Shown: in pieces, positions 6,651-50,484 of the stretch
How positions within the stretch are numbered: position 1 is the stretch's first letter
Layout: every line of letters starts with the position of its first letter
Virus record (IMG/VR): IMGVR_UViG_3300047160_004205
Span: 1,686 to 65,685 of that record
Length of the DNA: 64,000 nucleotides
Strand: one strand, 5' to 3'
Source of the DNA: a virus
Lineage: Duplodnaviria > Caudoviricetes
The notes under the pieces: generated by a model
Database searches by the model: none
Told to the model about the DNA's origin: nothing
What the model saw: only the letters and a program-made list of their open reading frames with translations
Made by a program: the position numbers and the translations under genes

Positions 6651-9191
6651 TTAGCCGAAATACTGCGCGCCCATTGATGAGTTGCCGCTAGCCGTTGTAG
6701 TCAGCCACCGATTATAGTTGCTTGGATCGCCTTCAACGCTGCTAACCATGCTCACCCACGGCCAATTCATCTGCGTCCATGCAATTCCGGTAAAGCTTGA
6801 CGGGTTGAAGTTATCACAACGCCAGAAATCCCACACCCAACCGCCAGGGCCGTTTATCCAACCATAAATGCCCAACGATGGGTAACTCGCCGAAGGTGCC
6901 GCAGCACTGAACCCAATATCAATGATTGGGCCAAGAGCGTAAGTTGCATTCGTTACCAGTGAAAAGGTCTGGCCGCCGTCTTTGGAAAAATACAATGAAA
7001 CAGTCTGGGCCGTAAGGGGATTGGGTGCATAATTAGGCGGTGAACCCGTCAGACCAAATGGCGCGGGCACGATCACAAACAGATGGCCGGGCTGCCCCGG
7101 TACTGATTTCAAGTGGACATTGGATGTGAGGATGCTCGGGGAGGTTGGCAATCCTGTCGTTGCCTGCGATGCCCAAGACGAACCGGAAGTGGTTGTCTTG
7201 TAAATATTTCCAGTATTGCTGAGGATATACCCAACTCCTTGGAACCCAGGGGATTGTTCGTAGCAAACACAGCGGACATTTCCATTCGGATGAAAGCCAG
7301 TGAACCTAAAGGCACCGGCACTCGGAGACAAGGGACTGGGACAGGTGCTCCAAGTGCTGCCACCGTTAGTCGTGTAGTAGGCTTGGCCAGGAGTAAATTG
7401 AGCCGATACAGTCTGATTGATTGACCCGCCAAATTGCAAGACATCGCCAACCGCGATCAAGGGGCACAGAACGCTCAACGTTACAGTATTGCCATCTATA
7501 AAATTTACAGTAGTGCCGCCCGGTATATTGCCGGGAGTGGTCAAATCGGTAACGGTCATACCTCCCGATACGCCGGATGAGCTAGCAACCGCAACTGTTG
7601 TGCCGGTGTAGTTGTGCGTATCTACAACGATCCAATGATTTGCATCAAACACCGCTATCGAACTGGTGCCAAAAAATGAGGTTGGCGGAGGGCTAGCTTG
7701 TGTCCAATCTCCAACTCCAGTGCTAGACGAGAAAAATTGGTTGTTATCAAAGCCCGCCATAAAACCAGAACCATCTTGAGCAAAATCCACAGAGTCGGAA
7801 AACCCGGTCGGCGGATAGCCGTAAATGGCCGTGTTATTTGGCGCGTACCGGGAAGGCGGAGTGTTCTTTGCGTTTCCCGCCCCGATTACAAACAGCGGGC
7901 GATCCCAGCATGAAAGAAGTATTCTGCCATCCGTCATCCAGCGACCACCGTTAACCACCATGCCTTCAAAGCCTTGAGACATGGGAACCCAACTAATCGC
8001 GGAAACCCCGTCAGTCGGAACCGTCGTAGCGTAGATCGCGCCGATGCCAATCGCGTGCCAAAGTCTACCAGAGTAGTCAATTTTCATACATATAGAATCT
8101 AAAGTCGTTCCGACATTGTAGGGAAGAAACGACCATTGAAACCACGGCACGTCGCCTACCGCCATCGTGGCGTTTGTATTGCGTCCCGCCCAACTAACGG
8201 TGCCGCTGCTTGCGTTCGATGTCGTAATATCAAACGCGCCATCAAAGAAATTAGAACTGGCTGTGGCTCCTACGACAAGTCGTCCGGTAGTAGTAGGATC
8301 AACAGCGAGGGTGTTACACCACAAACCATTATATATTTGAGTCCACGTCGTATAACTACCGGCAGGGCCGAGCCGATAGATATTTGCTGATACGAGATCA
8401 CCGTTAGCGCAACAATAGTAAGTGCCGCCACTATCAAATCCACCACAACGCACCGCTGTTGGCATGCTGGTCGCTGGCGCAGAAGCAAATGATGATCCTC
8501 CATTGGTGCTGATATAGACGCCAACTCCAAAGATCGGGATCACTATAACGTTGCCATGCCACGCCATCCCAAAATAGCCCCCCGTGCTACTGGGGATGGT
8601 GCCAGGGTCCAAACGAGTGCAAACTGGAGTAGTAGTAAGACCGATAACATGCCAAATCCCATTGGCAACGCCAGACGCCCCCGGGATTCCTATGTAACAT
8701 TCACTGTCTGACGACGGGTTAAACGCAATCATCGGCGTTAACCCGCCGACATTTGGCGAAATCCCATTTTGCGTAAAAGTAATTCCAGAGAGCTTGTTCC
8801 AGGTGGCTCCGTGATTCAGACTATAAAGAACACCATTACCGCCCGGCCCCGCACCGTTGCCGTCCCAAATGGCTACTATCGTGTTGGAATTAGAGGGAGC
8901 ACTAACTAACGCACTAACCCCCGTCCAGAAGGTTCTGGTTGCAATAGGGTCTGGCATAGACGCAAAATTAAATGGCGTCAGCCAGTTGCCGTTGCCGCCA
9001 GCATTATTAACGCTGCTGATCCAACCGCCCCAAACGTCGCCGGTTCCCAACAGTGTGCCATCGGAGTTGATATCTAGTGTCGTGCTAAGACCGCCCGCGC
9101 CAAGCTGAAGGATTTTCCACGACGGGATCGTTACGGGCGGCTGTACCGACGACGCCGATGGACTGCTTAAAGGCTCACATCTGAAAACCAT
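6651..9191 (-). CDS. BNR/Asp-box beta-propeller, GH74 (xyloglucanase)-like putative depolymerase
   Basis: Asp-boxes SLNHGATW, STNGGSSF, TTNGGSTW, SKDGGQTF; GH74-like start W-x5-GAGG...TGDVWGG; no signal peptide. Confidence 0.7.
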   Translation of the reverse strand: MVFRCEPLSSPSASSVQPPVTIPSWKILQLGAGGLSTTLDINSDGTLLGTGDVWGGWISSVNNAGGNGNWLTPFNFASMPDPIATRTFWTGVSALVSAPSNSNTIVAIWDGNGAGPGGNGVLYSLNHGATWNKLSGITFTQNGISPNVGGLTPMIAFNPSSDSECYIGIPGASGVANGIWHVIGLTTTPVCTRLDPGTIPSSTGGYFGMAWHGNVIVIPIFGVGVYISTNGGSSFASAPATSMPTAVRCGGFDSGGTYYCCANGDLVSANIYRLGPAGSYTTWTQIYNGLWCNTLAVDPTTTGRLVVGATASSNFFDGAFDITTSNASSGTVSWAGRNTNATMAVGDVPWFQWSFLPYNVGTTLDSICMKIDYSGRLWHAIGIGAIYATTVPTDGVSAISWVPMSQGFEGMVVNGGRWMTDGRILLSCWDRPLFVIGAGNAKNTPPSRYAPNNTAIYGYPPTGFSDSVDFAQDGSGFMAGFDNNQFFSSSTGVGDWTQASPPPTSFFGTSSIAVFDANHWIVVDTHNYTGTTVAVASSSGVSGGMTVTDLTTPGNIPGGTTVNFIDGNTVTLSVLCPLIAVGDVLQFGGSINQTVSAQFTPGQAYYTTNGGSTWSTCPSPLSPSAGAFRFTGFHPNGNVRCVCYEQSPGFQGVGYILSNTGNIYKTTTSGSSWASQATTGLPTSPSILTSNVHLKSVPGQPGHLFVIVPAPFGLTGSPPNYAPNPLTAQTVSLYFSKDGGQTFSLVTNATYALGPIIDIGFSAAAPSASYPSLGIYGWINGPGGWVWDFWRCDNFNPSSFTGIAWTQMNWPWVSMVSSVEGDPSNYNRWLTTTASGNSSMGAQYFG

Positions 9192-11449
9192 CAGGCCACC
9201 TTGCGCTGTTCAAGAGCCTCCAACTCTTTCACGACACGCTGGATGACCGGCTCCCACTCACCGCCCTTCTTGCATCGGAAGATTCGCGCAGAAGGATACC
9301 ATGGACTCTTAGTATTCCACGACGCACCCGGGCGCTCCGCCATCCAGTGCCAAGAGCCTTCCGTGTGCATCATCACCCAGACTGGTTTTCCCATTGCCCC
9401 GGCAAGATGAGCAACGGAGGTGTCAACGGTTATGACCAAATCCAAACATTCCACCAGCGCAGCCGTATCTTCCCAGAGCGGTTCTCTCGGTAACAAGTCC
9501 ATGACCGTGCCATCGTTCTCCTCACGTTCTGGGCCGACTTGAAGCGAAACAAAATTGCTTCCCTCGTCCACGATTCGTGAAAGCTGATTGAACGTCATTG
9601 ATTTGCGCTCGCCGTAAGTCTCCAGCCAAATCCCCAACCCGCGCCTTACGCCAGCGGACCAGACCAATCCGATGCGTGGCCCGCCCGGGAACTTCGCCTC
9701 GTACTTCCCTACCTTCTCAGGATTGGCCTTCAGATACGGCCCGTACCACGGCACCGTATCCACCTCCGTTTTGAACACGAACGGCAGGCTTCCGATCGGC
9801 AAATGGTAATCGAACGGCTTGAGCCCGAGAAAACCGGGATAGTCCGGGGCCCGCTTGTGAACGCGGATGTCTGGGAAGGAGAGCTTCAGCAACTCTTCCA
9901 TCGTGTCCGGGCACTCGTAAGTCACCTCATGGCCCTGTTGGGCGATCAGAGGAAGATACCGCGCCATCGCCAGATTATCGCCCGCCCCCGCCTCGCAATG
10001 GATGTGAATCTTCGACGGCGGCTCTTTCCCCGTCCATAGCGGCTTGATGAACCGCTTCAACGGGAGCGACAGGGCGATATTGGTTTTTTCGTCAATCCGG
10101 TGCTCGTGCTCCGCCCAGCCCTCCCGGTATCGGCCGATCGAGTGCAGAGCCAAACTCTTGTTCCAGTGTGCCGTATGGATGTGATGACACTTTAGCTCAA
10201 TCGCTTCATCGTACATCTCGATTGCATCTTCGTGCCGTCCCTCACGGTAGGCCACCATTGCCAGACAGTGGATCGCATCCGCCCGGCGCTCCGTATTGAG
10301 AACCTTCTTCGCCAGTTTCTTCACCAGCGCATAGTCCTCGACATCAAGAGCAATAGTAACCCGGTCCAATAGGGCATCGGGATCGTCTGGCTTGAGCGAT
10401 AACTGCTTATCGTAAGCTTCAATGCAGCCCTTAGGATTATTGACTTCATGCTCGACTCCTCCGAGCGTGCGCCATGTCTCTGGATTTTCCGGATCAATCC
10501 TTGTCGCCTTGATCGCCTCCTGCTTAGAAATCTTGTCGTTGCCCATCGCTCGTAAAGACTTAACGATGAACTCGATACGATACTCAGTCGCCAGCGGATC
10601 AACGTGCAGGGCGTCCCGATAGTAATCCGCTGCCGCGCCCGGTCGATCTTTCGCCAGAGCCAGACGGGCGAAGAACACGCACGCCTCACCCCGGGCCACT
10701 CGCTCAGTCGCGCTCTTGGAGTCGCGCGTCAAATACATGATGAGCCAGTAAATCGGCTCCGCGTTGATATGCTTACCCTCTTCGACGTACTTTCTGGCGC
10801 GGTGGATCAGTTCAATAAAACCGGCGTCGTCCATCCGCTTCCGCAGCATGTTCGTCCAGCCGACTTGATAGTTGCAAAACTGGATGTCCGCTCCGTTGTA
10901 GCGGGCGTGCTGGGCAACCAACTCACCCTTGCCACCGATAACAACTCGCGGATCGTCAATAATCACCGGAGAGTCGTCAACCGCTACCATCGACTCTGCC
11001 GTCAACATCGGCAGTGCGGCGTAAAGCTCATTGAGGTGATGATTTGCGGCCAGTAGCGGTTCGCCCCAGTGCAAATCCGAACCGTCAAGGTAAAGGAGAT
11101 CAATCTTGAGTCTTAGCTCCTCCATTACGATGAGGGCTTCAACGCTATCGCGCCACCAGACTTCGCCTCTTTTGATTAACTTCCTGCAAGTAGCAACGGC
11201 TTCCTTGTCTCTATCAATTGAGTAGAACTTCCCCTTGTGGGTTTGGATGTAATGATCGAACAAAATCGAGGAGCATCCAGCACCTTTCCACGCATCATCG
11301 GTATCCAGTGTGGTGCAGCCGGTTTCGACAATGTAGACCTCACGATCGTACTTATCCAAATGCTCAAACATCTTCTGAAACGTGTCGGCCCGGGAGTGCA
11401 GTAAAGCTCGTCTCGTCTCAAACCAATCCCAGAACTCTTCACTTCTCAT
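9191..11449 (-). CDS. Class I SAM methyltransferase + TPR + GT9-like glycosyltransferase fusion
   Basis: VETG...IDLLYLDGSD...VAVDD methyltransferase; TPR helices; EAGAGDNL, DYHLPIGSLP, GLVWSAG, LDLVITVDTSVAHLAGAMGKPVW. Confidence 0.85.
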   Translation of the reverse strand: MRSEEFWDWFETRRALLHSRADTFQKMFEHLDKYDREVYIVETGCTTLDTDDAWKGAGCSSILFDHYIQTHKGKFYSIDRDKEAVATCRKLIKRGEVWWRDSVEALIVMEELRLKIDLLYLDGSDLHWGEPLLAANHHLNELYAALPMLTAESMVAVDDSPVIIDDPRVVIGGKGELVAQHARYNGADIQFCNYQVGWTNMLRKRMDDAGFIELIHRARKYVEEGKHINAEPIYWLIMYLTRDSKSATERVARGEACVFFARLALAKDRPGAAADYYRDALHVDPLATEYRIEFIVKSLRAMGNDKISKQEAIKATRIDPENPETWRTLGGVEHEVNNPKGCIEAYDKQLSLKPDDPDALLDRVTIALDVEDYALVKKLAKKVLNTERRADAIHCLAMVAYREGRHEDAIEMYDEAIELKCHHIHTAHWNKSLALHSIGRYREGWAEHEHRIDEKTNIALSLPLKRFIKPLWTGKEPPSKIHIHCEAGAGDNLAMARYLPLIAQQGHEVTYECPDTMEELLKLSFPDIRVHKRAPDYPGFLGLKPFDYHLPIGSLPFVFKTEVDTVPWYGPYLKANPEKVGKYEAKFPGGPRIGLVWSAGVRRGLGIWLETYGERKSMTFNQLSRIVDEGSNFVSLQVGPEREENDGTVMDLLPREPLWEDTAALVECLDLVITVDTSVAHLAGAMGKPVWVMMHTEGSWHWMAERPGASWNTKSPWYPSARIFRCKKGGEWEPVIQRVVKELEALEQRKVA

Positions 11450-11919
11450 AACACTCCGTCTCCTCCACCCATAAATTCATGTGGCCGGTCAGCCCGTATT
11501 TCTGGGGTCAAAGTCGTGCCCGGCAGAACGGGGATTTCCTTGCCGAGACTCTTTAGTTCTTTTTCTTTCGGGTGCATTCGGGTGCGCTCCTCGCCCACGT
11601 ACCCATCACCGTATTTCCGTACCCGCCCGGTTCCCATGCAACGCTGACATTTATAAGCCTGTCCATTGCAGTCCGGGCACGGCACATCCCAATAATACTG
11701 CCATGCCTCTCCGAGCCTAGAGCATATTTCTTCGTGGCTGCTGAAAAGCTGCAAGAAGGAAAGACAACCAAATTCCGGAAGGGTATCTAGATTAAGTACA
11801 TCGCAGTGCCCCTTACCTTGCGGGGCCTGCCAATCCACGACCTCGCTGCCGTCACCGTAAACGGTCTTGCGAAGAGTCCGCCAATGCTCGCAATCGGCGC
11901 ACTTCAATAACACCCCCAC
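11446..11919 (-). CDS. Cys-rich Zn-binding protein (DnaJ-like CxxCxG motifs)
   Basis: CADCEH, CPDCNG, CQRCMGTG. Confidence 0.6.
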   Translation of the reverse strand: MGVLLKCADCEHWRTLRKTVYGDGSEVVDWQAPQGKGHCDVLNLDTLPEFGCLSFLQLFSSHEEICSRLGEAWQYYWDVPCPDCNGQAYKCQRCMGTGRVRKYGDGYVGEERTRMHPKEKELKSLGKEIPVLPGTTLTPEIRADRPHEFMGGGDGVL

Positions 11920-12233
11920 CGATCTTCGATCCGGCGCTTCAGATACTCGCGCTCTTGATATTCACACTGTTTTTCCCATGGGAGGCAAGGTTTATCTGCG
12001 CACTTCTCACAAATCATCCGCATACAGCCGCGACAAACGTTCGTCTTTTCCCTCATTTCCTGCTTCGTGGGGGCTTCCGTGATGTGCTGACAATGATTGC
12101 AGGTCGAGGCGTATCTAACCTCGACGCCAAAAGACGTACAGATTTCGACAATGCCCCCGGGCTTGATACGGGGTCCTTTGGGGATGGCCCAGATATCGGG
12201 CAAGGACGCCCGTAAAACGTCCTTGCGTCCCAT
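11904..12233 (-). CDS. Small Cys-rich Zn-finger protein
   Basis: CNHC, CRGC, CEKC...C. Confidence 0.6.
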   Translation of the reverse strand: MGRKDVLRASLPDIWAIPKGPRIKPGGIVEICTSFGVEVRYASTCNHCQHITEAPTKQEMREKTNVCRGCMRMICEKCADKPCLPWEKQCEYQEREYLKRRIEDRWGCY

Positions 12234-12731
12234 TTACCGCTCGATGAAGGAGATGTTTCCAACAGCGGTGGCCGCGAAGCCGCCCGAGATTGACTGGCAC
12301 CGTATCACAACGCCCGTGCCTGCCGTCGCCGCGATCAGGATGTTGTCGCCGTCGTCCAGCGCCCTCCAGCGATAGGAGCCGCGTTGGTTGATGCCCCAGT
12401 TCTTCAGATTGAGCCCAAACCCGGCAGTGGTGACTGTCAACTCGGTTGTGGCGTTGTTCTGGAAGAGGCTGAGAGGCGATACATCGGCGGGATCGAGCGA
12501 GTTGGGGACAACAGAGCTTGCGGTGAGGATGTTCGTAGCCGAGAACCGGGAAATGTCCCACTGCACCGGAGCGTCCGTCGTGGAGTACGTTCCCATCTGT
12601 CCCATTTCAACTTCGTAAAGCTGAATCCGGCGCTGGGTATTCGCCGCAGTGTTGCACCACAGCGCACCGGCAGTCTTATACGCAGAGGTGGAAACGGTAT
12701 TCTGAAGCAAGGGGGCTTCGTAGTTCGCCAT
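12234..12731 (-). CDS. Putative virion structural protein
   Basis: 165-aa beta-rich ORF, GGAG RBS, in late operon. Confidence 0.55.
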   Translation of the reverse strand: MANYEAPLLQNTVSTSAYKTAGALWCNTAANTQRRIQLYEVEMGQMGTYSTTDAPVQWDISRFSATNILTASSVVPNSLDPADVSPLSLFQNNATTELTVTTAGFGLNLKNWGINQRGSYRWRALDDGDNILIAATAGTGVVIRCQSISGGFAATAVGNISFIER

Positions 12732-35454: not shown

Positions 35455-36884
35455 GCGCGCTTCCTCTTCCTGGCCTCCAGCCGCATTTCCAGGTCGCCAA
35501 TCATGTTCTCAAACACCGGCTCCCACCGGCAATCCTCCCCCTGCTTGTAAATCCGGTGCTTTGGGGCCCAGATGACATCCTTGCCGTCGTGGCCCACCCG
35601 GTAGTCCGGAGCCATGTAGGCGTAGGGCATCCAAAATTCCTTGCCCACCATGGAACAGATGTGGCCCAAGGCGCTTTCACACCCGATTACCAAGTCTAGG
35701 TTCTGCAACAGGGCTACCGTGTCACAGACATCTCGGATGTATGGGCTCAGGGGCTTAATCATCGCCCCTGCGCCAATGAGATTGGCGTCGTTCTCCCCCT
35801 CCCCGACTTGCAGGGAGTAAAGCTGGATGCCCGGAACCCGGTATAGCTCCAAAAAGTGCTGCACCGGGATAGTGCGGTGGCTGTCGATGTCGTTCAGCTT
35901 TGAGCCCTTCCACGCCACCCCGATATGAAGCTTCTGATCGGGATACATCCACGTATTCGGCAGATGAAAAATAGGCGGCGTAATCTGTTTCGTCCTGCGG
36001 ATTTGCTCATCCGAGAGCCCCAGCGCAAACGGCAGGCTTACAAACGTAGTCCACACATCCGCCTGCGGGAACGTACTGCCTTGGGGCAGGAAATTGAGGT
36101 TCTTGATGCCAATAAAGGCGTGCATGAATAGCCGCATCAACTCGGGTTGGATGTAGACGTGAAGGTATTTTGCCTTCTTCGCCGCCATTTCTACAAAGCG
36201 GGCGAACGAGAGCGTGTCCCCGAGCCCCTGATCGGCGACGAGAAACACCACCTTGTCGTCCTCCCCCTCCCATTTAGGGTAGGGGTAGGCGAGGTACTGG
36301 TGGAGTCGCCACTCGAAGCGACATTCAAAGTGCCGGAAGCCCTCTTTGAAGTTCCTGTTGAAGAGAAGGGCAAAAGATAAAGCGGCCCGATTAACCAACT
36401 CATCCGGTTTGATGTCGTAAGCCCTCCTCGCGCACCTTACCGCTTCCTCATTTTGCGAGCGGAGACCGTGGACCTGAGCGAGATTGACCCATGCGTGGTG
36501 ACATGCCGGATCGAGTTCTATTGCTTTCCTCAGGACTTCATCGGCTTCATCAAAGTACCCGAGCGTAAACAGCCGCCAGCCCATGTCGCTGTAGCACTTT
36601 ACCAACTCTTCCTTGTCGGGCTGCTCCTGCTGAAGCGCACGACGGTAAGCGGAAACGGCAGCGCGGAGCCAGTTGCGGCGATGCTCTACGGGAAAGTCTG
36701 GATTCTCCGACAGACCGCCGATATTAGCTGCGTACTGGAACCAACCATGCGCCCATAGCGGGTCCATCTCACAAGCACTGGCAAAGAGTTGGAAAGCCGT
36801 GGTGGGATTCGACGGCTTCGACTTGTCGTTTATCGTCTCTACGCCTTGGTTAAAAAACCTTATCGCTGTTGTGCGATCGCCCAT
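35451..36884 (-). CDS. TPR + GT9-like glycosyltransferase
   Basis: TPR helices; DQGLGDTL, TFVSLP, GVAWKGS, YSLQVG, LDLVIGCESALGHI; paralogous to C-terminal part of 9191..11449. Confidence 0.85.
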   Translation of the reverse strand: MGDRTTAIRFFNQGVETINDKSKPSNPTTAFQLFASACEMDPLWAHGWFQYAANIGGLSENPDFPVEHRRNWLRAAVSAYRRALQQEQPDKEELVKCYSDMGWRLFTLGYFDEADEVLRKAIELDPACHHAWVNLAQVHGLRSQNEEAVRCARRAYDIKPDELVNRAALSFALLFNRNFKEGFRHFECRFEWRLHQYLAYPYPKWEGEDDKVVFLVADQGLGDTLSFARFVEMAAKKAKYLHVYIQPELMRLFMHAFIGIKNLNFLPQGSTFPQADVWTTFVSLPFALGLSDEQIRRTKQITPPIFHLPNTWMYPDQKLHIGVAWKGSKLNDIDSHRTIPVQHFLELYRVPGIQLYSLQVGEGENDANLIGAGAMIKPLSPYIRDVCDTVALLQNLDLVIGCESALGHICSMVGKEFWMPYAYMAPDYRVGHDGKDVIWAPKHRIYKQGEDCRWEPVFENMIGDLEMRLEARKRKRA

Positions 36885-37828
36885 GATACTATCTTTAGTC
36901 CCTCTTCCAGCGTGACTACCGGCGTGAAGTATCCTGACATCAGGGTTGTATCTGCCACTCGCGAGAAAACGCCCTCAGGCTTCGTTGGATCGTTCCCAAT
37001 TACCGCATCGTGTCCGACTATGTTGCACGCGATCTGCGCTAACTGCCGAAACGACGTGGCGCGGCCAGTCCCGAGATTGAGAGGCTTGCCGGATAGCTCC
37101 TCGACATCCATTGTTTTCATGACGGCGCTCACCACGTCGTCTATCCAGATGAAATCCCGCTGCTGATCTCCCGAGCCCCACACTGTGATCGGATTTTCCT
37201 TATCGACTACCCGTTTGACGATGGCGGGAACTGGATAAGACGGGTGCTGATCCTCCCCATAACCCCCAAACGGACGGTAAATCCGCACGTCGAGGCCGTA
37301 TTGTTCGTGCGCGAACTTCGCCAGATACTCCCCGGTTAGTTTCGCCCAACCGTAAGTCATGTCGGGAAGCTCAATCATCCGGGCCTCATCACCAAAATCC
37401 AAATCAATTTCCCTCAATCGAAGCTCCGGAGTCGTGCGAGTCTGATAGGAGTTTGGATAGGCGGCGGGGGAGGAGAAATAAATCACCTTGGGCGGCAATT
37501 TCCCACGCGCTGCCCAGTTGAACATCTCGGCATCGATTGAGAGATCGGTGGCAACCGCCAGCGGATCGTTCTCGATATTGAGCCTGCCGCCGACAACAGC
37601 GGCGAGGTGAACCACTAAATCGAAACTTGCCGACGTAAAGGCGTGAAAGAAGTCCCGCACATCCATGTAGTGCAGATCGAACTTCTTCGTCGGCTTGTGC
37701 ATCCAGTCGTCTAGCGGCTTCCCGGTGGTAAGATTATCCACCACCACCACATCGTAGCCGTCATTAAGCAGCCGATTGACGAACCTTCTGCCTACGAATC
37801 CACAACCACCTGTAACCAGTGCTCTCAT
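36860..37828 (-). CDS. NAD-dependent NDP-sugar epimerase/dehydratase (extended SDR)
   Basis: LVTGGCGFVG, HLAAVVGG, FSS, YGWAK (YxxxK), RPFGGYG. Confidence 0.92.
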   Translation of the reverse strand: MRALVTGGCGFVGRRFVNRLLNDGYDVVVVDNLTTGKPLDDWMHKPTKKFDLHYMDVRDFFHAFTSASFDLVVHLAAVVGGRLNIENDPLAVATDLSIDAEMFNWAARGKLPPKVIYFSSPAAYPNSYQTRTTPELRLREIDLDFGDEARMIELPDMTYGWAKLTGEYLAKFAHEQYGLDVRIYRPFGGYGEDQHPSYPVPAIVKRVVDKENPITVWGSGDQQRDFIWIDDVVSAVMKTMDVEELSGKPLNLGTGRATSFRQLAQIACNIVGHDAVIGNDPTKPEGVFSRVADTTLMSGYFTPVVTLEEGLKIVSWAIAQQR

Positions 37829-38010
37829 AACACCCCCTCCGCGCACATTAGTTTGCATTTCGACGGATCAATTGCGGGAAAAAACTGTACTCCGCCGTTT
37901 CTAGTCACACAGTAGAACTTAGGCACACCTTTCTGATTCGGCTTGTCCTGATGAAGCTGCCACATCTCCTCTTCGGTTATCAGAACAACCGCGCGCCAGT
38001 CACCGTTCAT
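37825..38010 (-). CDS. Hypothetical protein (start uncertain)
   Basis: Fills gap, ATGA-type coupling to epimerase. Confidence 0.4.
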   Translation of the reverse strand: MNGDWRAVVLITEEEMWQLHQDKPNQKGVPKFYCVTRNGGVQFFPAIDPSKCKLMCAEGVL

Positions 38011-38446
38011 CAAAAACAGCCCAGTTTCCAAACTCAGTTGGAAGATCGGCGGCAAGGCAATCAACCTTTTGATCGACTCGCTCACCAAATATCTTGGAGA
38101 TTTCATTTTTGGCACGAGTACGAACGCCGTTGATGCTATGGGTAAACCGTAATTTATCGGCTACCACCTCCGGTGCCCACCCCAGCGGATCATCGTATCC
38201 CTTTCGAATTACCCCCTCGTTCAACCAGATTTCTCGGTTAGAAAGCATCAACACCAAAATGGGATAAATCATCGATGATCTAGGGTACATGCTGGCGGGA
38301 TCGTCAATAAGACTGGCAATATCCTCCACAATCAGCTTCATCTCGGCCCGGTACGCCTCGCGATCAATAAAGATCGATTTCATCAGGCAGATGGAAAGCC
38401 GATCAATCAACTCAGCAATAGTGGGGAGATACCGTCGCTCTGTCAT
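38000..38446 (-). CDS. DUF6165-like helical protein
   Basis: TIAELIDRLSICLMK, NREIWLNEGVIRK, INGVRTRAKNEI match the ELxDKxTILxIK / NxxLWxxEDxIR / NDxRxxxKxxI pattern. Confidence 0.55.
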   Translation of the reverse strand: MTERRYLPTIAELIDRLSICLMKSIFIDREAYRAEMKLIVEDIASLIDDPASMYPRSSMIYPILVLMLSNREIWLNEGVIRKGYDDPLGWAPEVVADKLRFTHSINGVRTRAKNEISKIFGERVDQKVDCLAADLPTEFGNWAVFDER

Positions 38447-38670
38447 GTCACCGCTTTGACCGCCCACATCGCGGCTTCCTCGAACGCGGTCATGGCCAGC
38501 GCCAGCAAGCGCGCGCGTTCCTGTGCTCCGTCCAAACCGTTTGCCAGCGTTGTTTCACGGGCATTGTTGCACCAATCGATGCAATCCGCCGCCCGCTGTT
38601 TGATGTCGTTGACGTCGGTGTTGGCCGACGGGTTGAACGATAGCTGCACGCGATCGGTGCCGAGTGTCAT
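38443..38670 (-). CDS. Acb2/Tad1-like hairpin protein (putative cyclic-nucleotide sponge)
   Basis: FNPS...VNDIKQRAADCID...LALAMTAFEEAAMWAVKAVT; C-terminus parallels Acb2 LxxAxTxLxEAxMWAxxA. Confidence 0.75.
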   Translation of the reverse strand: MTLGTDRVQLSFNPSANTDVNDIKQRAADCIDWCNNARETTLANGLDGAQERARLLALAMTAFEEAAMWAVKAVT

Positions 38671-38691
38671 GACAAAATACCCTCCTTGCTG

Positions 38692-39096: not shown

Positions 39097-39106
39097 GATT
39101 TGCCTC

Positions 39107-39286
39107 CTATTTCTCTAATGCCTTCTCGCGGCAACGGATGCGGGCGAAAGCGCCCTTTGATGACTCGATTACGGCGCGCGGATCAATCCCGTTCCATGCC
39201 AGAAGGTCTTGCAGGCGACAGATTTCGTCATTTTGTTCAAAGCACAGCTTGACGATTTCCTCGCGAGTGCCGTGAATGTCAGACAT
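39107..39286 (-). CDS. Hypothetical protein (likely start MSDIHG)
   Basis: GAGGAG RBS. Confidence 0.5.
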   Translation of the reverse strand: MSDIHGTREEIVKLCFEQNDEICRLQDLLAWNGIDPRAVIESSKGAFARIRCREKALEK

Positions 39287-39426
39287 GGCGGCTCCTCTAT
39301 CTATTTCCAGATTACGAACAGATGGGCGATGGGCTGCATTGTTTCTTCCCAGAACCATAGCGGTGTCACTCGCTCCCCTGTCAGCAGCCAATAATAAGCC
39401 AAGATGGCGCTCCTTGCTGTCAGTTG

Positions 39427-39708
39427 TTATTGCGAACAATCATCGGCCAGACCCATTACGACATATCCCGGCTCAACTCCGAGCTGCCCGCCCGTCAGTA
39501 TCCAAGTCACACGGCGACGCAATGCCTTCGGCGCGCCGCAACCCTTGGCATAGTCCAACTCGTAAAGTCCGTTTTGCGGATTGAATTTGTGCAAGATTAG
39601 AATGTCGCCCTTTTGAAAGCCCCGGTCATCGCGCCGAACTTCAAAGTTTTTCGCGCCAGACTCAACGGCGTCCCAATAGACCGGCCAAGTTTTCAGGCGA
39701 TGTTCCAA
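39427..39708 (-). CDS. DUF3850 / ASCH (PUA-like) domain protein
   Basis: HRLKTWPVYWDAVESGAKNFEVRRDDRGFQKGDILIL...GYVVMGL. Confidence 0.85.
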   Translation of the reverse strand: MEHRLKTWPVYWDAVESGAKNFEVRRDDRGFQKGDILILHKFNPQNGLYELDYAKGCGAPKALRRRVTWILTGGQLGVEPGYVVMGLADDCSQ

Positions 39709-39716
39709 GACGGCTC

Positions 39717-39899
39717 CTATTCTGCTAGTGCTTTCTTGGCCAAATCTGTTAGCTCCGACCAACTACTGTGGCGGTCATCTGCGATACGCAGCAAGTAGGC
39801 ACGAAGCCTGTTGATCTCGGCGGTTAATTCTTCCGCATAAGCGCGGTAATCATCCACCGTCGATAGATAGTCTCCGACCTTGAACAACTTGGTTTTCAC
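39717..39899 (-). CDS. Hypothetical protein
   Basis: 60 aa, AGGAG RBS, GTG start. Confidence 0.55.
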   Translation of the reverse strand: MKTKLFKVGDYLSTVDDYRAYAEELTAEINRLRAYLLRIADDRHSSWSELTDLAKKALAE

Positions 39900-39908
39900 C
39901 GACGCTCC

Positions 39909-40127
39909 TTATTCTCGTTCACGCTTGCGAACGAGTTTAGCGATTATCTCGAAGATCGCGTTGAATGCTTTCCAAAACATCCATGGCCTCCATGATGCCA
40001 AAAATCGCTCCCTATCAGTAAGCAGCCCTATATATTCTTCGTAGGCCGACACAAGTTGCAGAATGACTACTTGTCGGTCCACGGCGGCTCCTGCTAAACG
40101 AACTGGATATGGTGAACAAGCCACCAA
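39909..40127 (-). CDS. Hypothetical protein (start uncertain)
   Basis: In operon, amphipathic helices. Confidence 0.4.
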   Translation of the reverse strand: MVACSPYPVRLAGAAVDRQVVILQLVSAYEEYIGLLTDRERFLASWRPWMFWKAFNAIFEIIAKLVRKRERE

Positions 40128-40230
40128 ATGCAGAGCGGCAATCCGATGGCGGCGGCTATCACGGACACGACGATAGCGACCATTCCGATGAACGCCAGAT
40201 AATAGACACCGCTAAAGTCAACTGGCCCCA

Positions 40231-40407
40231 TCAGACAAACCCTTTATCCTTCGCCAGCCATAGCGGCATCGTGAAAGTGCCATCGCTATTTTGCTCGACC
40301 TGAGACTTAGGCACCCATTCAGTCTTGGTGCCGTCGTGTAGCCGCCACGCCTTCTCAGTTTCGCCCCTGACTTCGGCGGCAATGTCGATTAATTCACGCT
40401 TCCCCAT
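40231..40407 (-). CDS. 58-aa conserved-type phage protein (below track cutoff)
   Basis: Manual translation MGKRELIDIAAEVRGETEKAWRLHDGTKTEWVPKSQVEQNSDGTFTMPLWLAKDKGFV; AGGAG upstream. Confidence 0.7.
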   Translation of the reverse strand: MGKRELIDIAAEVRGETEKAWRLHDGTKTEWVPKSQVEQNSDGTFTMPLWLAKDKGFV

Positions 40408-40418
40408 CCAATCGTCTC

Positions 40419-41699
40419 CTACAGCGGTGGAAGAAACGTCGAATCAAACTTGATGTGCGGTAGATAGGGCTGCGGCTCCCGGGTACGGATGCCGTAGAAG
40501 ATCACTCCGGGGGTTAACGCTGTAACCCTGACATTACGGTAGGCGACTGAACCGGGGACTGAGATGTTCAGTATCCCAGCCTCGCCTTCAGGCTTCGCTA
40601 CAGGCTCGCAAGAAAAATTGGAGTCCTCATCCTCGACGCGAACTTGCCCGCCCGCCTCGCCGCCAGAGACCAAGACATCGACCGGGCCGGAAATCGGCAT
40701 GTCCACGATCGGAGGGGCTGTCCACATCTCGAAACCTTCCGGCCCGTGATCGACGCAATTCGCCCCGGACTTCCAGGCAAAGCACCCATAACCGAGCGCC
40801 CATTTGAATCGCCAATGGCCAGAGTACGTCCCGCCGAGCCCTCTGATCTGGTGCGGGAAGATTGTCCACGTCCCGCTGTGAAACAGCCGCATCCCCGGGG
40901 TAGTGGGCGTTTCCACCCTGCCCTTACGTATCGCAGCGAGACTCTCGGTGTACCGAGCCAGCGCCGCCTTATCGCGGCGTTCCTTCACTTCCTTCTTTGC
41001 CATCTCCAAACCCATACTCTTGATGTTCTCAAGTTGGGAGGCTTTGGCGGGCGTAAGGGCGAGGCTGCATAAACCGTGCTGGGCGAGCATCCGATCGTAC
41101 TGCCAGTCGGCAACAAGCATGTGATCCGAGCCCCTGAAGGCCCAATACGGCCCGATATCCACCCCTGAGAGCATGGCAAAAGTCTTACGGTTCTCCGATG
41201 TCATTCCGGTGCGGTAATAGCGGAGGACGATTTCCGCTGCGGCGCGGGAAAAAATAACCATGCCAGCACCAAGATTGTGCATAACAGCAAAGCCATCACA
41301 CTGAACAAGAACGCGATCCACATAACAGCGGGCAGACACCGCTCCCACCTCCAAGCCTGCTTGTTTGCCGTAATCAAAGAGCGCCATCGTCTTATCGAAC
41401 CAACCGTCATGGAGCATCACATCGTTTTCAACGAGTCCGATATAATCATACGCGCCACCGTCCTCCCTTCCGTAGTCAAGTAAGGATGTAAGCGCGCAAA
41501 CAATATAGCGGCACGATCCACCCGTAAGACGAACTGCGGTGTGTACTTTGTCGCTAAACTTTTCTTGATACGCCTTGCCTTCTTCGTTTTGCGAGCCATC
41601 GAACCACCATACATCTGCTGGGGATTGGATTAGGGGCTTGAGCGTCCGCTTCGTCTTATCGACGCGATCCTTTGAGGAGTAGGCGATACCGACTCTCAC
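40419..41699 (-). CDS. GT-A fold (GT2-like) glycosyltransferase with C-terminal beta domain
   Basis: GIAYSSKDR, WFDGS, YDYIGLVENDV, GAVS, LGAGMVIFSR. Confidence 0.7.
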   Translation of the reverse strand: MRVGIAYSSKDRVDKTKRTLKPLIQSPADVWWFDGSQNEEGKAYQEKFSDKVHTAVRLTGGSCRYIVCALTSLLDYGREDGGAYDYIGLVENDVMLHDGWFDKTMALFDYGKQAGLEVGAVSARCYVDRVLVQCDGFAVMHNLGAGMVIFSRAAAEIVLRYYRTGMTSENRKTFAMLSGVDIGPYWAFRGSDHMLVADWQYDRMLAQHGLCSLALTPAKASQLENIKSMGLEMAKKEVKERRDKAALARYTESLAAIRKGRVETPTTPGMRLFHSGTWTIFPHQIRGLGGTYSGHWRFKWALGYGCFAWKSGANCVDHGPEGFEMWTAPPIVDMPISGPVDVLVSGGEAGGQVRVEDEDSNFSCEPVAKPEGEAGILNISVPGSVAYRNVRVTALTPGVIFYGIRTREPQPYLPHIKFDSTFLPPL

Positions 41700-41944
41700 G
41701 GCGATACCGGCTCAAATCCCCAGAGCACGGCGCTAGTCAGGGGCGGCTTGGGCTTATTCGGCTGGGAGGAGAACTGACTGAGCCCCTCGACGCCATGGAT
41801 TCTTTTCTCTCGCCGCCGAGGCATTGCCAGCGGTAGCTCCGCGTAACCCACATACTTATGCGGCGGCTTGGGATCGGGCATGAAAGCAAAGCCCGACGCG
41901 CCCTTGATGGCTGATCGTCTGTTCTGCATCGGCCGTTTCAGCAC
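41696..41944 (-). CDS. Hypothetical basic protein
   Basis: 82 aa coupled between two glycosyltransferases. Confidence 0.45.
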   Translation of the reverse strand: MLKRPMQNRRSAIKGASGFAFMPDPKPPHKYVGYAELPLAMPRRREKRIHGVEGLSQFSSQPNKPKPPLTSAVLWGFEPVSP

Positions 41945-42967
41945 CTAAGCTGCCTTCTCTTGGAGGGCGGTTTCAACGTCGTCCATGAACGCATCGGCCA
42001 ACTCGGTTGCGCCCTGCGGCCACCATTTCAGTCGGGACAGCAGATGGTAGACGGCGCGCATCCGTTCGTTCTTCGGCAAGATTATAGCGTCGAGCGCCTC
42101 CGCCAGTTCAACGATGTGCTCCATGCCGAACATCTCCGCCTTCAAGTCCTGCACCAGATCGTGCTGGTTCCGTTGCTGCCAGACAAAAGGCTTACCGAAA
42201 TGAACATGGTAGCCCTCTTCTCTCATGATCCTCTGGCAGATCAGTGAAGCGAAGATGTCGTCGTAGCGTCCGAACTGGGGGCAGCAGAGCAAGGCTGGGG
42301 CGAACTTTGAAAGCACCGCAGTGTTCTGTGTGTTGCAAACAGTCCAAGTATCGTTGCCAACAACAAATCCGGCGTGAAACAACTCGGAGACGGTGTGAAC
42401 GAGAGGATGCTGAGACATCCTATCCACAGCAGAGGTGTCCGGATCGCCAAGGATGACTCCCTGCGCTAGCCCGATCTTAACCCCCGTCGCATATCCAATC
42501 TTTGCCCTAGATGATACATCTTGCGGAAACCCGCGTTGCACAACCGGCTTACCGTCGTGCGGAAACTGCCACTGCCCGGGATCGAACCAAGTTCCATTTC
42601 CTCCTACTTTCAATCCCGAGAAATCTTCAGCAAATAGGGAGTCGAAGTCGGCGAAGTACAGCCGATCCAACGGGATATTATCGTCGTCGCAAGTGACGAT
42701 CACATCGGCACCTGAGCGGATGGCTTCAAGGAGGGCGATGTTCCTTCTTGTGATGGTGTTCCAACCCAACAGTTCCGAGCATTTCCATTGTCTCTGGCTG
42801 TCTGGCGACAGGTAGCGGACGACGCCGGGCAGACTTGAGCAATACTCCGCTGCCTGGACTCGGGTTTTCTTGTCGCCAGCAACGAACATCGGCACCCCGA
42901 ACCCGTGCCTCCGGTACAGGCTGAGAACCGTGGGGATGTTGATGGTGGTGGTTATCAGGGCGATCAT
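41945..42967 (-). CDS. STELLO/DUF288- or GT75 (RGP)-like glycosyltransferase
   Basis: ITTTIN, VAGDKKT, RRNIALLEA, CDDDN, GDPDTSA, NTQNT, GRYDDIFAS, QQRNQHDLVQDLKAEM. Confidence 0.75.
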   Translation of the reverse strand: MIALITTTINIPTVLSLYRRHGFGVPMFVAGDKKTRVQAAEYCSSLPGVVRYLSPDSQRQWKCSELLGWNTITRRNIALLEAIRSGADVIVTCDDDNIPLDRLYFADFDSLFAEDFSGLKVGGNGTWFDPGQWQFPHDGKPVVQRGFPQDVSSRAKIGYATGVKIGLAQGVILGDPDTSAVDRMSQHPLVHTVSELFHAGFVVGNDTWTVCNTQNTAVLSKFAPALLCCPQFGRYDDIFASLICQRIMREEGYHVHFGKPFVWQQRNQHDLVQDLKAEMFGMEHIVELAEALDAIILPKNERMRAVYHLLSRLKWWPQGATELADAFMDDVETALQEKAA

Positions 42968-43128
42968 GCGGCGCGTAAATCCTTCAGGAACTCATCGATC
43001 AGTTTACGGACTAGCTGGGGGGCCGTCTGGTAGCGATCCATTGCGGCCTTCTGCATCGCCTTCCATTTGATGGGCTCGATCCGGATGTTGATCGGTAGAG
43101 TCTTGTGCACTTTCTTCTTCTTGCTCAT
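42964..43128 (-). CDS. 54-aa ribbon-helix-helix-like DNA-binding protein (below track cutoff)
   Basis: MSKKKKVHKTLPINIRIEPIKWKAMQKAAMDRYQTAPQLVRKLIDEFLKDLRAA; ATGA overlaps on both sides. Confidence 0.65.
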   Translation of the reverse strand: MSKKKKVHKTLPINIRIEPIKWKAMQKAAMDRYQTAPQLVRKLIDEFLKDLRAA

Positions 43129-43358
43129 GAGTCCACCCGTATTGAGAGCGGTTGCAGCTGAGCGGACAGGGAGGATAGGAAACTCCCCCGGCCGTTGACG
43201 TACTGGGCCTGCTCTGAGGTGGAGAGCGAGGAGGGTTTATCGGGCGACCACACCACCACCACGGAGCTTAGAACCCCATTGGGGGCGTTGCCGGATACCG
43301 TGGCGTATATCTGGCAAAGCCGGTTCCCGACCCTAAAGCTGGAAGCGTACTCGCTCAT
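43125..43358 (-). CDS. Hypothetical protein
   Basis: 77 aa, ATGA-coupled. Confidence 0.5.
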   Translation of the reverse strand: MSEYASSFRVGNRLCQIYATVSGNAPNGVLSSVVVVWSPDKPSSLSTSEQAQYVNGRGSFLSSLSAQLQPLSIRVDS

Positions 43359-43549
43359 TTGAACTCTCTCGGCTCGAAACGAAAACCAACCAAAAACTCC
43401 GTGCCTTTATTGACCATCACAACCGGAACCTCTGCCACCACCATGTCAGTTTCTACGTCGCGGACAACGGCAACGATGGCTCCGTAGCAGTGTGCAGTCA
43501 CGAGTTGCTTGACCAATACATTCTCATCACCGCCGTGCTTGCGGCTCAT
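43355..43549 (-). CDS. Hypothetical protein (likely start MSRKHG)
   Basis: ATGA overlap with methyltransferase stop. Confidence 0.5.
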   Translation of the reverse strand: MSRKHGGDENVLVKQLVTAHCYGAIVAVVRDVETDMVVAEVPVVMVNKGTEFLVGFRFEPREFK

Positions 43550-44136
43550 TTCAGCCTCACTACCCAAGCCTCGCCGTGCCGCCTGCCCAATAACTCAAAA
43601 TCCCGATCGGTGGAGTCGAGCCACTCCCTGAACGCCTTCTGCTCATGATTGATGTTTCTTACCGCGCCATCGATCTCGTCAAAAACGAGGATCGAGCCGG
43701 GCTGGAGCCAGCGGGTTAAGATTTCCAACGCGTGCTTGGTGGACGAGTAGATGTCCATGTCGAAATGGACGAAGGCTGGTGCCGTATCGTACTCCAGTAA
43801 AAATTCAGGAAGGGTGTCCTCAATCCTCCCGATGACGAACTCGCCATTGTCGGGGCGGGAAGGAGGAACTCCCTGCATGTCCAACTCCCGATCGATAGGG
43901 GGTTCATCGGTGGGATAGTTTCTCCAGGCTTCCGGTAAACCTCGAAACCAGTCGAACCCATAAACCTTGCGGGGATGGGCGAGACTACAGATTTCGTTAA
44001 AACTCTGCCCCTGGTACACCCCCAGCTCAATTATCAACCCCTCCCCGACATGGGTGAAAATCTCCTTCCAGTCCATGAACTTCAGCTTGTTGGACGAGAG
44101 GATGATGTCGAGCTTGAGATTCTTGTTGAATTGCAT
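43546..44136 (-). CDS. TylF/MycF-like class I SAM O-methyltransferase (start 44136 or 44076)
   Basis: ELGVYQG, YGFDWFRGLPE, GRIEDTLP, FVHFDMDIYSST, GSILVFDE. Confidence 0.85.
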   Translation of the reverse strand: MQFNKNLKLDIILSSNKLKFMDWKEIFTHVGEGLIIELGVYQGQSFNEICSLAHPRKVYGFDWFRGLPEAWRNYPTDEPPIDRELDMQGVPPSRPDNGEFVIGRIEDTLPEFLLEYDTAPAFVHFDMDIYSSTKHALEILTRWLQPGSILVFDEIDGAVRNINHEQKAFREWLDSTDRDFELLGRRHGEAWVVRLK

Positions 44137-44232
44137 CAGCCACCGACTAGCGGAGTGCAATCCGGAAACTGCACTCCGCCGTGTAATCCCGAGTCAGGGG
44201 TTGTCGGGGGATGGGGAACGACCCGGGAATCG

Positions 44233-46424: not shown

Positions 46425-46429
46425 TGTGA

Positions 46430-49250: not shown

Positions 49251-49279
49251 TTGACAAGTGTAGCAGTGAGCACTACACC
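49251..49279 (+). promoter_or_regulatory. Sigma70-type promoter TTGACA-17-TACACC containing operator copy 3 (49258..49278)
   Basis: GTGTAG CAGTGAGCA CTACAC with perfect palindromic arms. Confidence 0.75.
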
Positions 49280-49285
49280 AGAGTC

Positions 49286-49716: not shown

Positions 49717-49921
49717 GCGCAAACACGATAAGTCTTGGGAGGAGATCGCCCGCGAGCGGGCTGTGAAAGAGCTAATCTCTTCTATCCGCCGCATGTGGCA
49801 CAAGGGGCCGGACGCTCCGCCTAACCCACCGTTTAAGCCTAATGGGATACGGGAGCGCGCTTATATCTCTGCAAAGCGCGCCAGGACTGACAAATCCGTA
49901 ACCGGCTCAGCGTCTTTGTAA
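49709..49921 (+). CDS. Small basic hypothetical protein
   Basis: Coupled; AGGAG upstream. Confidence 0.45.
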   Translation: MIRRKHDKSWEEIARERAVKELISSIRRMWHKGPDAPPNPPFKPNGIRERAYISAKRARTDKSVTGSASL

Positions 49922-50484
49922 GCGCGGAAAATCTCTTCTCTGCGGACAAAGAAGGCATTTATTCCGTTAGAGTACACCAGCACATAGCCTTTCTGTTCGC
50001 CCAGCTTAGTCATCGCTAATAGACTCGCGCCGTAGAACTGATTCCCCGGCGTTACCACGAAATTATCGTCGCGCGGCATTACCAGAGCTTTATCCAGCGG
50101 CAAACAACCGTTGTACTCGATTATCACCAACGGCGGGCGCTGTTCGATTGCCTGCCAAACCCAATAATCCTGGCCGTCGATGTCGATCGATAGTACCCCG
50201 ATTTCAGGTACGGAGTATTTAGCAAATAAATTATTTATGTTTTCTGGCGTGACGTGTTCCTGCCTAATGAACGCGCCACCCTTTTTATCCATGAACAATC
50301 CCGGCCAGCCCTGATGGTGCAGGGCAATGCAATTGCCCTCATAGGGCGCGACTCCAAACTCGACAAAATAACGGGGAACCTCGATCCGGCCTAATAGCGC
50401 GGCGATAACCAAATCTTCATTGTTCTGCGAGGTGTCCTGTTCACGTCGCCTCAAAGGAACGGCCAATAAATCTGTCGCAAACAT
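49861..50484 (-). CDS. FkbM-like class I SAM methyltransferase
   Basis: SQNNED, FVEFG, GLFMD, VTPENIN, VLSIDIDGQDYWVW, IIEYN, GASLLAM, NAFFVR. Confidence 0.85.
   Translation of the reverse strand: MFATDLLAVPLRRREQDTSQNNEDLVIAALLGRIEVPRYFVEFGVAPYEGNCIALHHQGWPGLFMDKKGGAFIRQEHVTPENINNLFAKYSVPEIGVLSIDIDGQDYWVWQAIEQRPPLVIIEYNGCLPLDKALVMPRDDNFVVTPGNQFYGASLLAMTKLGEQKGYVLVYSNGINAFFVRREEIFRAYKDAEPVTDLSVLARFAEI

Follow-up and report, generated by a model that had tools for sequence, protein, structure and literature searches.

Two separate sets of soluble sugar enzymes beside the packaging and tail genes of an uncultured phage of about 65.7 kb

The stretch of DNA analyzed here (the window) covers 64,000 of the 65,685 bases of the IMG/VR record IMGVR_UViG_3300047160_004205, which is rated complete by CheckV and represents the complete genome, about 65.7 kb in size, of an uncultured phage of the Caudoviricetes. 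The phage encodes soluble sugar enzymes in two separate sets: cassette A, beside the packaging genes, which probably serves to produce and transfer a rare furanose, and cassette B, which is mobile and located among tail genes. Cassette A comprises a GT75 mutase homologue, a GT-A glycosyltransferase, an extended short-chain dehydrogenase/reductase (SDR) and a protein combining tetratricopeptide repeats (TPR) with a domain like that of glycosyltransferase family 9 (GT9); in cassette B three small conserved genes precede a methyltransferase-TPR-GT9 fusion. Glycosylation of phage proteins is the best reading of these genes, given that TPR arms are joined to GT-B domains and that both units are located within or next to virion-gene modules; modification of virion proteins is given about an even chance of being correct.

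An initial annotation of the window had combined eight open reading frames (ORFs) into a single dispersed system for the synthesis, transfer and methylation of a glycan. All eight are open over their annotated extents on the minus strand, and six of the eight family assignments hold. The single system does not: cassettes A and B are independently inherited units, accompanied by accessory genes. Among 31 near-complete relatives (15 of them classed by IMG/VR as having direct terminal repeats), which served as the panel for presence and absence throughout, the fusion and the TylF-like gene were each present in one genome, a small DUF4254-like ORF in five and the FkbM-like ORF in none, and for this reason the eight genes are not regarded as one pathway. 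These four genes are accessory and do not belong to a shared core. Patchy distribution, which the annotation had named as evidence against a common system, is thus confined to them; the other four genes, all of cassette A, are fixed and syntenic in a large clade. Membrane-like segments were not detected in any of the eight proteins, and two of them combine TPR with GT-B, the type of protein glycosyltransferase to which the annotation had appealed. The coordinates of all features are given in Table 1.

Table 1. Position, strand and basis of assignment of the features discussed (coordinates are those of the window).
Feature	Coordinates	Strand	Basis
Cassette A (GT75, GT-A, SDR, TPR-GT9)	35451-44160	-	upstream of terminase
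TylF/CalS11-like sugar O-methyltransferase, cassette A accessory	43546..44160	-	Pfam; phrog_6608 methyltransferase; CalS11
GT75 NDP-pyranose-to-furanose mutase homologue (MtdL/Hyg20 type)	41945..42967	-	MtdL homology
GT-A glycosyltransferase with C-terminal beta-sandwich (carbohydrate-binding-module-like)	40419..41699	-	AlphaFold2 fold
Small DUF4254-like protein, cassette A accessory	38000..38467	-	family matches
Extended-SDR NDP-sugar epimerase/reductase	36860..37858	-	Pfam Epimerase 133 bits; phrog_540 1e-59
TPR-GT9-like glycosyltransferase, cassette A core, OGT/SPY/FlmG-like architecture, 477 aa	35451..36884	-	TPR Pfam; AlphaFold2 fold
Cassette B (three small conserved genes, then fusion)	12731-9191	-	
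165-aa conserved protein, first gene of cassette B	12234..12731	-	conservation; no Pfam/PHROG match
109-aa conserved protein	11904..12233	-	homologue in 29/30 cassette loci and in L124, L126, L127, L128
157-aa conserved protein	11446..11919	-	conservation; stop overlaps fusion start (ATGA)
Methyltransferase-TPR-GT9 three-domain fusion, 752 aa	9191..11449	-	Pfam; paralogy; stand-alone family of N-terminal domain
BNR/Sortilin-type beta-propeller tail protein	6651..9191	-	BNR 27 bits; Sortilin-Vps10 25.8 bits
1331-aa Pro/aromatic repeat protein, candidate acceptor/partner of fusion	393..4388	-	repeat array; co-travel
FkbM-like (?) class I methyltransferase lead, unlinked to either cassette	49861..50484	-	Atlas leads only

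Regarding cassette A, 80 IMG/VR loci were fetched and gene order was scored in the 42 with at least 7 kb of upstream sequence. The order mutase, GT-A, SDR, TPR-GT9, terminase large subunit (TerL), portal and major capsid protein (MCP) was fixed in 35 of these 42. The TPR-GT9 gene was present in all 31 relatives of the panel. The mutase and GT-A genes were each found in 27, an identical set for both, and in 26 of these an SDR gene adjoins the GT-A gene. This SDR belongs to one of two non-orthologous types, with an orthologue of the window's SDR in 15 relatives and a second type (25-34% identity) at the same position in 11. In one relative cassette A additionally contains a GDP-mannose 4,6-dehydratase gene (L027:5217-7241, with an intein and a LAGLIDADG endonuclease), which fits a route to GDP-L-fucose; a mutase-less relative has an NDP-hexose C-methyltransferase instead. 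From such additional genes it follows that the sugar supply varies while the TPR-GT9 protein is constant.

The assignment of the latter protein as TPR-GT9 was confirmed by its TPR repeats, by its paralogy to the fusion (C-terminal ~350 residues, BLASTP E 1e-14) and by its fold; Pfam GT9 (PF01075) gave no match on the 477-aa chain. In an AlphaFold2 (AF2) model with a predicted local distance difference test score (pLDDT) of 91.9, the whole chain matched OGT and SPY (Foldseek E 6e-11), with a VIA Z score of 20.2 to Drosophila OGT. Residues 197-474 matched TibC (4rap; Z 16.1, root-mean-square deviation 3.5, 244 residues aligned), WaaF (1psw; Z 15.8), the GT9 structure 3tov (Z 15.8) and WaaC (2h1f; Z 14.3). 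Residues G220, G222, D223, E403, A405 and H408 were invariant in 25 sequences, and S404 and L406 nearly so; they form the motifs GLGD and ES-x-x-GH. The Asp of GLGD may be the equivalent of WaaC Asp13. The catalytic domain of GT41 was not matched by Pfam or NCBIfam, and sequence matches to OGT in the PDB span the TPR part only. About 800 close homologues were found, many on contigs of 62-68 kb. In a scan of genome contigs for prophages, close homologues turned up exclusively on contigs that were short or of phage size, binned into unrelated phyla, and not on chromosomes, so that the scan yielded no host assignment. Chromosomal homologues are found at 22-32% identity in Proteobacteria and Planctomycetes.

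The GT75 homologue had been annotated as STELLO/GT75-like. Its membership in GT75 stands, but with matches to MtdL chains (E 1.2e-18 for the ORF alone, phmmer; E 1.9e-43 for the family profile A3, over profile positions 2-310, i.e., full length) it is more likely a ring-contracting sugar-nucleotide mutase than a transferase; Pfam RGP and STELLO gave sub-threshold matches only. MtdL is a structurally characterized mutase converting GDP-L-fuco/galactopyranose to the furanose form, in which Thr13 selects guanine (PMC9937993). As a homologue of MtdL the phage enzyme is therefore probably a mutase and not a transferase, which changes the logic of the pathway. Invariant residues in 40 sequences of the family (D94-D-D96, R145, D177, Q214, R234 and D237) align with the DxD motif, the reactive Arg159, Asp195, Gln229, Arg257 and Asp260 of MtdL. 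Thirteen active-site positions of MtdL are kept, counting DxD as one (the others are R159, D195, S228, Q229, R257, D260, R289, H292, T13, I15, D40 and R90). The retained equivalent of the guanine-contacting Thr13 makes a GDP-sugar the likely substrate. With MtdL and Hyg20, which belong to the pathways for A201A and hygromycin A (PMC9937993), the phage protein shares full-length homology, the DxD motif, the reactive Arg, the guanine-selecting Thr and most of the residues that bind sugar and phosphate, as well as the company of an SDR enzyme for sugar nucleotides; it differs in being encoded by a phage, as part of a cassette for sugar transfer and not of antibiotic biosynthesis.

Independently of these assignments, the mutase matches in several relatives (G012, G013, G014, G016 and G030) contain one in-frame TGA and sometimes also a TAA, and in the genomes of four relatives an interval of about 70-100 bases divides the match into two parts.

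The GT-A protein, annotated as GT2-like, had no Pfam match, and its sequence profile found nothing in the PDB. The AF2 model (pLDDT 91.9) bears out the annotation as a GT-A fold in residues 1-261, followed by a beta-sandwich in residues 274-416 that matches that of CE2 (Z 12.1). VIA matches included the hyaluronan synthase of a Chlorella virus (Z 14.8), GnT-I (14.3) and GlfT2 (12.5); Foldseek returned GnT-I (6e-8) and also SpsA, LH3 and XylT1. The DGS motif (D34/S36) and the ExD motif (E91-x-D93) are invariant. The annotation of the neighboring gene as NDP-sugar epimerase is likewise upheld, its product being an extended SDR by its Pfam Epimerase match. Its best NCBIfam matches, ADP-heptose 6-epimerase and GDP-fucose synthase (~90 bits), are far below the cut-offs and no equivalog was reached; PDB matches included the GalE type (97 bits) and GDP-mannose 3,5-epimerase (75 bits). 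The TylF-like product exceeds the cut-offs of both Methyltransf_24 (41 bits, cut-off 26.3) and TylF (32.5 bits, cut-off 23) and matches CalS11, a TDP-rhamnose 3'-O-methyltransferase, at E 2.3e-9, in agreement with its annotation.

In the proposed pathway of cassette A, the SDR would reshape a nucleotide sugar of the host, the GT75 enzyme would contract its pyranose ring to a furanose and the GT-A enzyme would probably transfer that furanose, a furanosyltransferase activity being suggested by its strict co-occurrence with the mutase. The TPR-GT9 protein would pick a protein acceptor by means of its TPR arm and attach a sugar, perhaps a priming one from a host donor, and in this phage the CalS11-like enzyme would probably O-methylate the sugar.

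The same furanose could instead be destined for the bases of the phage DNA, as in phages RB69, DLP3 and RL38J1, since there is published evidence both for arabinofuranose or galactofuranose on phage DNA and for NDP-sugar mutases encoded by phages (PMC13326640); those phages share with this one a phage-encoded supply of furanose nucleotide sugars together with transferases, and cassette A is located just before the packaging genes, the stage at which DNA is modified in such phages. This explanation is nevertheless very unlikely, because the known furanosylation of DNA depends on a ThyA-like 5-hydroxycytosine synthase (PMC13326640) that is absent here. ThyA (PF00303) gave no match at E <= 1 in the complete genome, whereas the control matched in 10 of 14 genomes, and homologues of Tet_JBP, TGT and family A DNA polymerase were also not found in the genome. 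The earlier statement that base-modifying enzymes are lacking holds in this respect for ThyA, Tet_JBP and TGT in a genome rated complete. In addition, the paper on RB69 and DLP3 mentions neither a TPR domain nor a GT-B fold, and the mutase of RL38J1 is a UDP-galactopyranose mutase, whereas the one considered here is of GT75 type (PMC13326640).

Cassette B differs from cassette A in its distribution. It was recovered from at least 35 phage contigs, which represent several different backbones and in which it lies in regions of structural genes; within the panel its fusion has an orthologue in G006 only, which shows the same order as the window (genes for the 165-aa, 109-aa and 157-aa proteins, fusion, repeat protein). 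In L126 it follows genes for Baseplate_J, Tail_P2_I and Gp53-like proteins. In L127 it follows capsid, SU10-adaptor and Gp80 genes, with a Sortilin/BNR propeller like that of ORF 6651-9191 next in line. In L128 it adjoins head genes, between Mu F-like and Pa193_gp24/Phage_cement genes. In each of these three contigs the three small genes precede the fusion and a repeat protein of the same type lies downstream. The 165-aa protein is 44-73% identical in 30 further IMG/VR loci and in L124, L126, L127 and L128, and is always encoded upstream of the fusion. The IMG/VR loci were recovered solely with this first small gene as query; a scan of IMG/VR for the fusion itself found nothing with a single sequence and G006 only with a two-sequence alignment. 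Among the 30 loci, the small genes are followed downstream by a TPR-GT9 gene in 25 of the 26 with enough flank (methyltransferase domain detected in 20 of these 25), and the repeat protein follows in 15 of the 20 with sufficient downstream sequence.

The fusion itself was confirmed as the methyltransferase-TPR-GT9 protein of the initial annotation. It carries TPR repeats and a match to Glyco_transf_9 (PF01075) of 23.5 bits against a cut-off of 22, which covers residues 649-690 only (42 residues) and includes the motif DTSVAH. The N-terminal domain is below the threshold for Methyltransf_24. The family to which it belongs consists of stand-alone proteins of ~220 aa; of 120 members listed, about 30 carry PF13578 (Methyltransf_24), and some are named class I S-adenosylmethionine methyltransferase by NCBI. 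In a search of 1.84 billion representative proteins, more than 11,000 representative clusters matched the fusion at E <= 1e-30, and the full-length three-domain relatives among the matches listed have 742-789 aa and 44-52% identity. The fusion is also related to giant proteins of 1,200-3,140 aa with 3-10 tandem TPR-GT9 units (P0361, P0366 and others). We recognized no characterized member among the TPR-GT9 clusters or the giants. The fusion stop overlaps the start of the propeller gene by one base (TGATG).

The most likely substrate of the fusion is a product of the cassette B module, to which the enzyme would add a sugar and a methyl cap. The leading acceptor candidate would be the Pro/aromatic repeat protein, whose repeat unit is roughly GWEVQPPQPPHPRPER-x-x-A-x-x-x-GDDG-x-E. 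Within the panel the repeat array is present only in G006, also the sole relative with the fusion, and the gene is usually found 2-9 kb downstream of the fusion with two to four genes between. The arrangement resembles that of TibC and Aah, protein O-heptosyltransferases of GT9 fold whose genes adjoin those of their repeat-rich substrates, the adhesins TibA and AIDA-I: TibC is among the best structural matches of the phage glycosyltransferase domain, and in the phages, too, the enzyme gene travels with that of a long protein of short imperfect repeats. The phage enzymes differ from these in having TPR arms and, in one case, a methyltransferase domain, and the phage repeat in its distance of several genes from the enzyme and in the absence of an invariant Ser or Thr. 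The N-terminal 230 residues of the repeat protein and the neighboring tail proteins are rich in Ser and Thr. The annotation had named tail or decoration proteins, or else the host surface, as the target; for the fusion, its constant position in virion-gene modules favors the former.

Other candidate acceptor sites were rejected. The Ser of PERSGA was dropped with a conservation of only 33% over 52 repeat units. The C-terminal tail of the MCP (window 25157-26209; L002-L080), which is conserved as roughly AK-S-S/V-SG-F/A-x-x-Y-N-L...F but is Thr-rich instead in the window and its closest relative, could not be linked to the cassettes. A 390-aa neighbor of the MCP is present in 31 of 31 relatives, with or without the mutase, and hence is uninformative. 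As a separate observation, a weak alpha-L-fucosidase match lies between the genes for the propeller and the repeat protein in a 96-kb phage (L127:15346-16506), which deserves mention given a possible fucose-type sugar.

The most extended form of the proposal combines a widespread mobile module, in which a TPR-guided GT9 glycosyl- and methyltransferase would decorate a Pro-rich repeat fiber of the virion encoded in the same module, as a viral counterpart of the TibC-TibA and Aah-AIDA-I pairs, with a furanose-containing glycan that would cover a conserved virion protein throughout a clade of soil phages of 62-68 kb and be the product of the first viral GT75 ring-contracting mutase pathway; this combination is less likely than not and is put forward tentatively.

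Several points weigh against virion-protein glycosylation. For both units the acceptor, be it a virion protein or the host surface, is inferred. The classical acceptor of GT9 enzymes is the lipid A-core and not a protein, and TibC, WaaF and 3tov are tied in Z score for the TPR-GT9 domain. With no invariant Ser or Thr in the repeat unit of ORF 393-4388, no acceptor residue can be proposed; five cassette B loci with 10 kb of downstream flank had no repeat protein at E 1e-5, and co-travel in one mobile cassette amounts to few independent events and is no proof of an enzyme-substrate pair. In favor of the reading, the sugar genes are on the same strand as the morphogenesis genes and upstream of them, with overlapping start and stop codons, but late co-expression is deduced from gene order only, since a promoter/terminator scan of 32.5-46.5 kb was uninformative (promoter-like counts at chance level, terminator-like counts slightly above chance). 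Finally, in the window protein and in the consensus of the GT75 family the Mn2+ ligand His287 of MtdL is replaced by Gln and Asp87 by Ile; Asn42 corresponds to Lys in the window protein. Mutation of D87, a position occupied by Ser in active plant RGPs, abolished the activity of MtdL, and the inactive AtRGP5 is without the His (PMC9937993). The mutase reaction may therefore differ or be lost.

These family-wide substitutions, measured against the characterized enzyme (PMC9937993), also suggest that the mutase and some of its partners could be inactive or repurposed remnants with binding or structural roles. Such an explanation is most improbable in view of the thirteen other active-site positions that are kept, of a mutase identity of 39-70% across 27 genomes with strict pairing of mutase and GT-A genes, and of the DGS, ExD and GLGD motifs, which are invariant, and ES-x-x-GH, which is invariant or nearly so.

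Modification of the host envelope is the alternative suggested by the GT9 family, which is that of the lipopolysaccharide (LPS) heptosyltransferases; the top structural matches include WaaF and WaaC, and ADP-heptose 6-epimerase is one of the best NCBIfam matches of the SDR. The enzymes would modify precursors of LPS core, O-antigen, capsule or exopolysaccharide at the cytoplasmic face, against superinfection or the sticking of progeny to debris. In the only published mention found, phage GT75 and GT2 genes from soil are treated as auxiliary genes of the carbon cycle and cell envelope (PMC12016548), and the tail proteins beside the fusion resemble propellers that bind or cleave glycans. Envelope remodeling is nevertheless judged unlikely. 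The eight proteins are without membrane-like segments, general scans of the window proteins, which included no targeted search, found no flippase or polyprenyl-phosphate transferase, and the presence of a TPR arm points to interaction with a protein. Rather than being a variable moron, cassette A forms a fixed core that adjoins the packaging genes, and cassette B is found inside structural modules. Lysogenic conversion in particular is unlikely because integrase and resolvase homologues were not found in this genome and close homologues are on phage-sized or short contigs and not on chromosomes.

A protein acceptor could also belong to the host, with the TPR-GT9 enzymes modifying a conserved protein such as flagellin, pilin or a cytoplasmic factor for takeover or exclusion in the manner of FlmG. 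The TPR domain of FlmG binds flagellins (PMC7591256), and the likeness of the phage protein to it is one of TPR plus GT-B architecture only. This build, an N-terminal TPR superhelix and a C-terminal GT-B domain in a soluble, cytoplasmic protein, is common to FlmG and to OGT and SPINDLY of GT41, from which the phage catalytic domain differs in being closer to GT9 and in its lack of a Pfam match to GT41. The chromosomal homologues mentioned above count in favor of this alternative, as do two MptE-like (PF01973) genes that come after the fusion in a 5-kb contig (L131:2895-4744). The PF01973 domain occurs in Maf-type flagellin glycosyltransferases. Glycosylation of host proteins is nevertheless considered improbable; a phage acceptor agrees better with the location of the two units within or next to the morphogenesis genes and with the finding that cassette B travels together with a repeat protein of phages.

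Virion-protein glycosylation is retained as the preferred reading, for which there are precedents in the capsid and tail glycosylation of mycobacteriophages and the self-encoded capsid glycosylation of chloroviruses. Like the mycobacteriophage (Che8-type) and chlorovirus systems, the present one comprises virus-encoded soluble transferases and methyltransferases with genes near structural genes, and, as in A064R of chlorovirus PBCV-1, glycosyl and methyl transfer are combined in one polypeptide. The enzyme families are different, and the system described here is known from genes alone; we know of no TPR-GT9 enzyme or GT75 mutase in the mycobacteriophage and chlorovirus systems.

Two of the eight ORFs deserve separate comment. 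The small ORF annotated as DUF6165-like holds this designation only loosely: the window protein itself has no match to DUF6165, which is faintly matched by 4 of 32 homologues (best E 0.067), whereas DUF4254, which fits better, is matched by 17 of the 32 (best E 8e-6). Of the five relatives with this ORF, it lies between the GT-A and SDR genes in the four whose flanking genes were located. The assignment of the second ORF to FkbM is unconfirmed. It had no match in Pfam even at E <= 5, in NCBIfam, in PHROG or among PDB sequences, and language-model and structure leads from the Atlas (feature score 0.96, TM 0.88) point to clusters with some Methyltransf_21 members; apart from these, the only other match was a hypothetical protein of a cyanophage. 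The gene is unrelated to either cassette.

Cassette A is interrupted by small genes in several genomes. In the window, a DUF3850/ASCH-like ORF (39427-39762; 79 bits) is located between the GT-A and DUF4254-like genes together with several small ORFs, all of which are absent from that spot in relatives. HNH-AP2 homing endonuclease genes lie between the mutase and GT-A genes in L013 and L034 and just upstream of the TPR-GT9 gene in L073. Six relatives have a small serine recombinase (Resolvase domain, E ~1e-28 to 1e-31; L013:8998-9780, L008:8930-9640, L034:9313-10056, L012:9038-9865, L060:8930-9745 and L056:5635-6339) between the SDR and TPR-GT9 genes or just upstream of the latter, where other relatives have an ORF of similar size; none is present in the window. 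The recombinase could be an invertase or an integrase. Just downstream of the TPR-GT9 gene, a 72-aa ORF (window 34444-34662) is kept in 80 of 80 loci; its PHROG matches are of unknown function, and we take it to resemble a KTSC-type small domain.

Regarding the genome as a whole, the packaging, capsid, tail-side and sugar genes compared are all on the minus strand, from ~44.2 kb to 0.4 kb, and are mostly contiguous or overlapping. Terminase, endolysin, RecT, YqaJ and a GcrA homologue (93 bits) are recognizable in the window. Only the last of these makes the alphaproteobacterial host given in the annotation plausible. A search of ~50,000 cultured phage records yielded no DNA matches to the window in near or distant mode, and protein searches of cultured phages with MCP and TerL returned only matches of 33-37%, to two spring phages; there is consequently no cultured relative by which host or morphology could be anchored. 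The contig ends (G000:1-200 and 65486-65685) lie in Gly/Pro-rich coding sequence, and unlike in many relatives no terminal repeat was found at them; the assembly probably broke inside a repetitive gene.

To our knowledge, self-encoded protein glycosylation occurs in few viruses only, e.g., some mycobacteriophages and chloroviruses. If the preferred reading is true, it would be extended to a large clade of uncultured phages, with genomes mostly having direct terminal repeats, and to a mobile module common to unrelated phage backbones. It would also provide a first biological role for the TPR-GT9 proteins, a very large family with giants of up to 10 tandem units, and a first role for viral GT75 mutases, which are now counted only as 'carbon-cycle' auxiliary genes of soil. 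Glycan coats of virions affect receptor binding, stability and immune recognition, and the enzyme-acceptor pairs may be useful for glyco-engineering.

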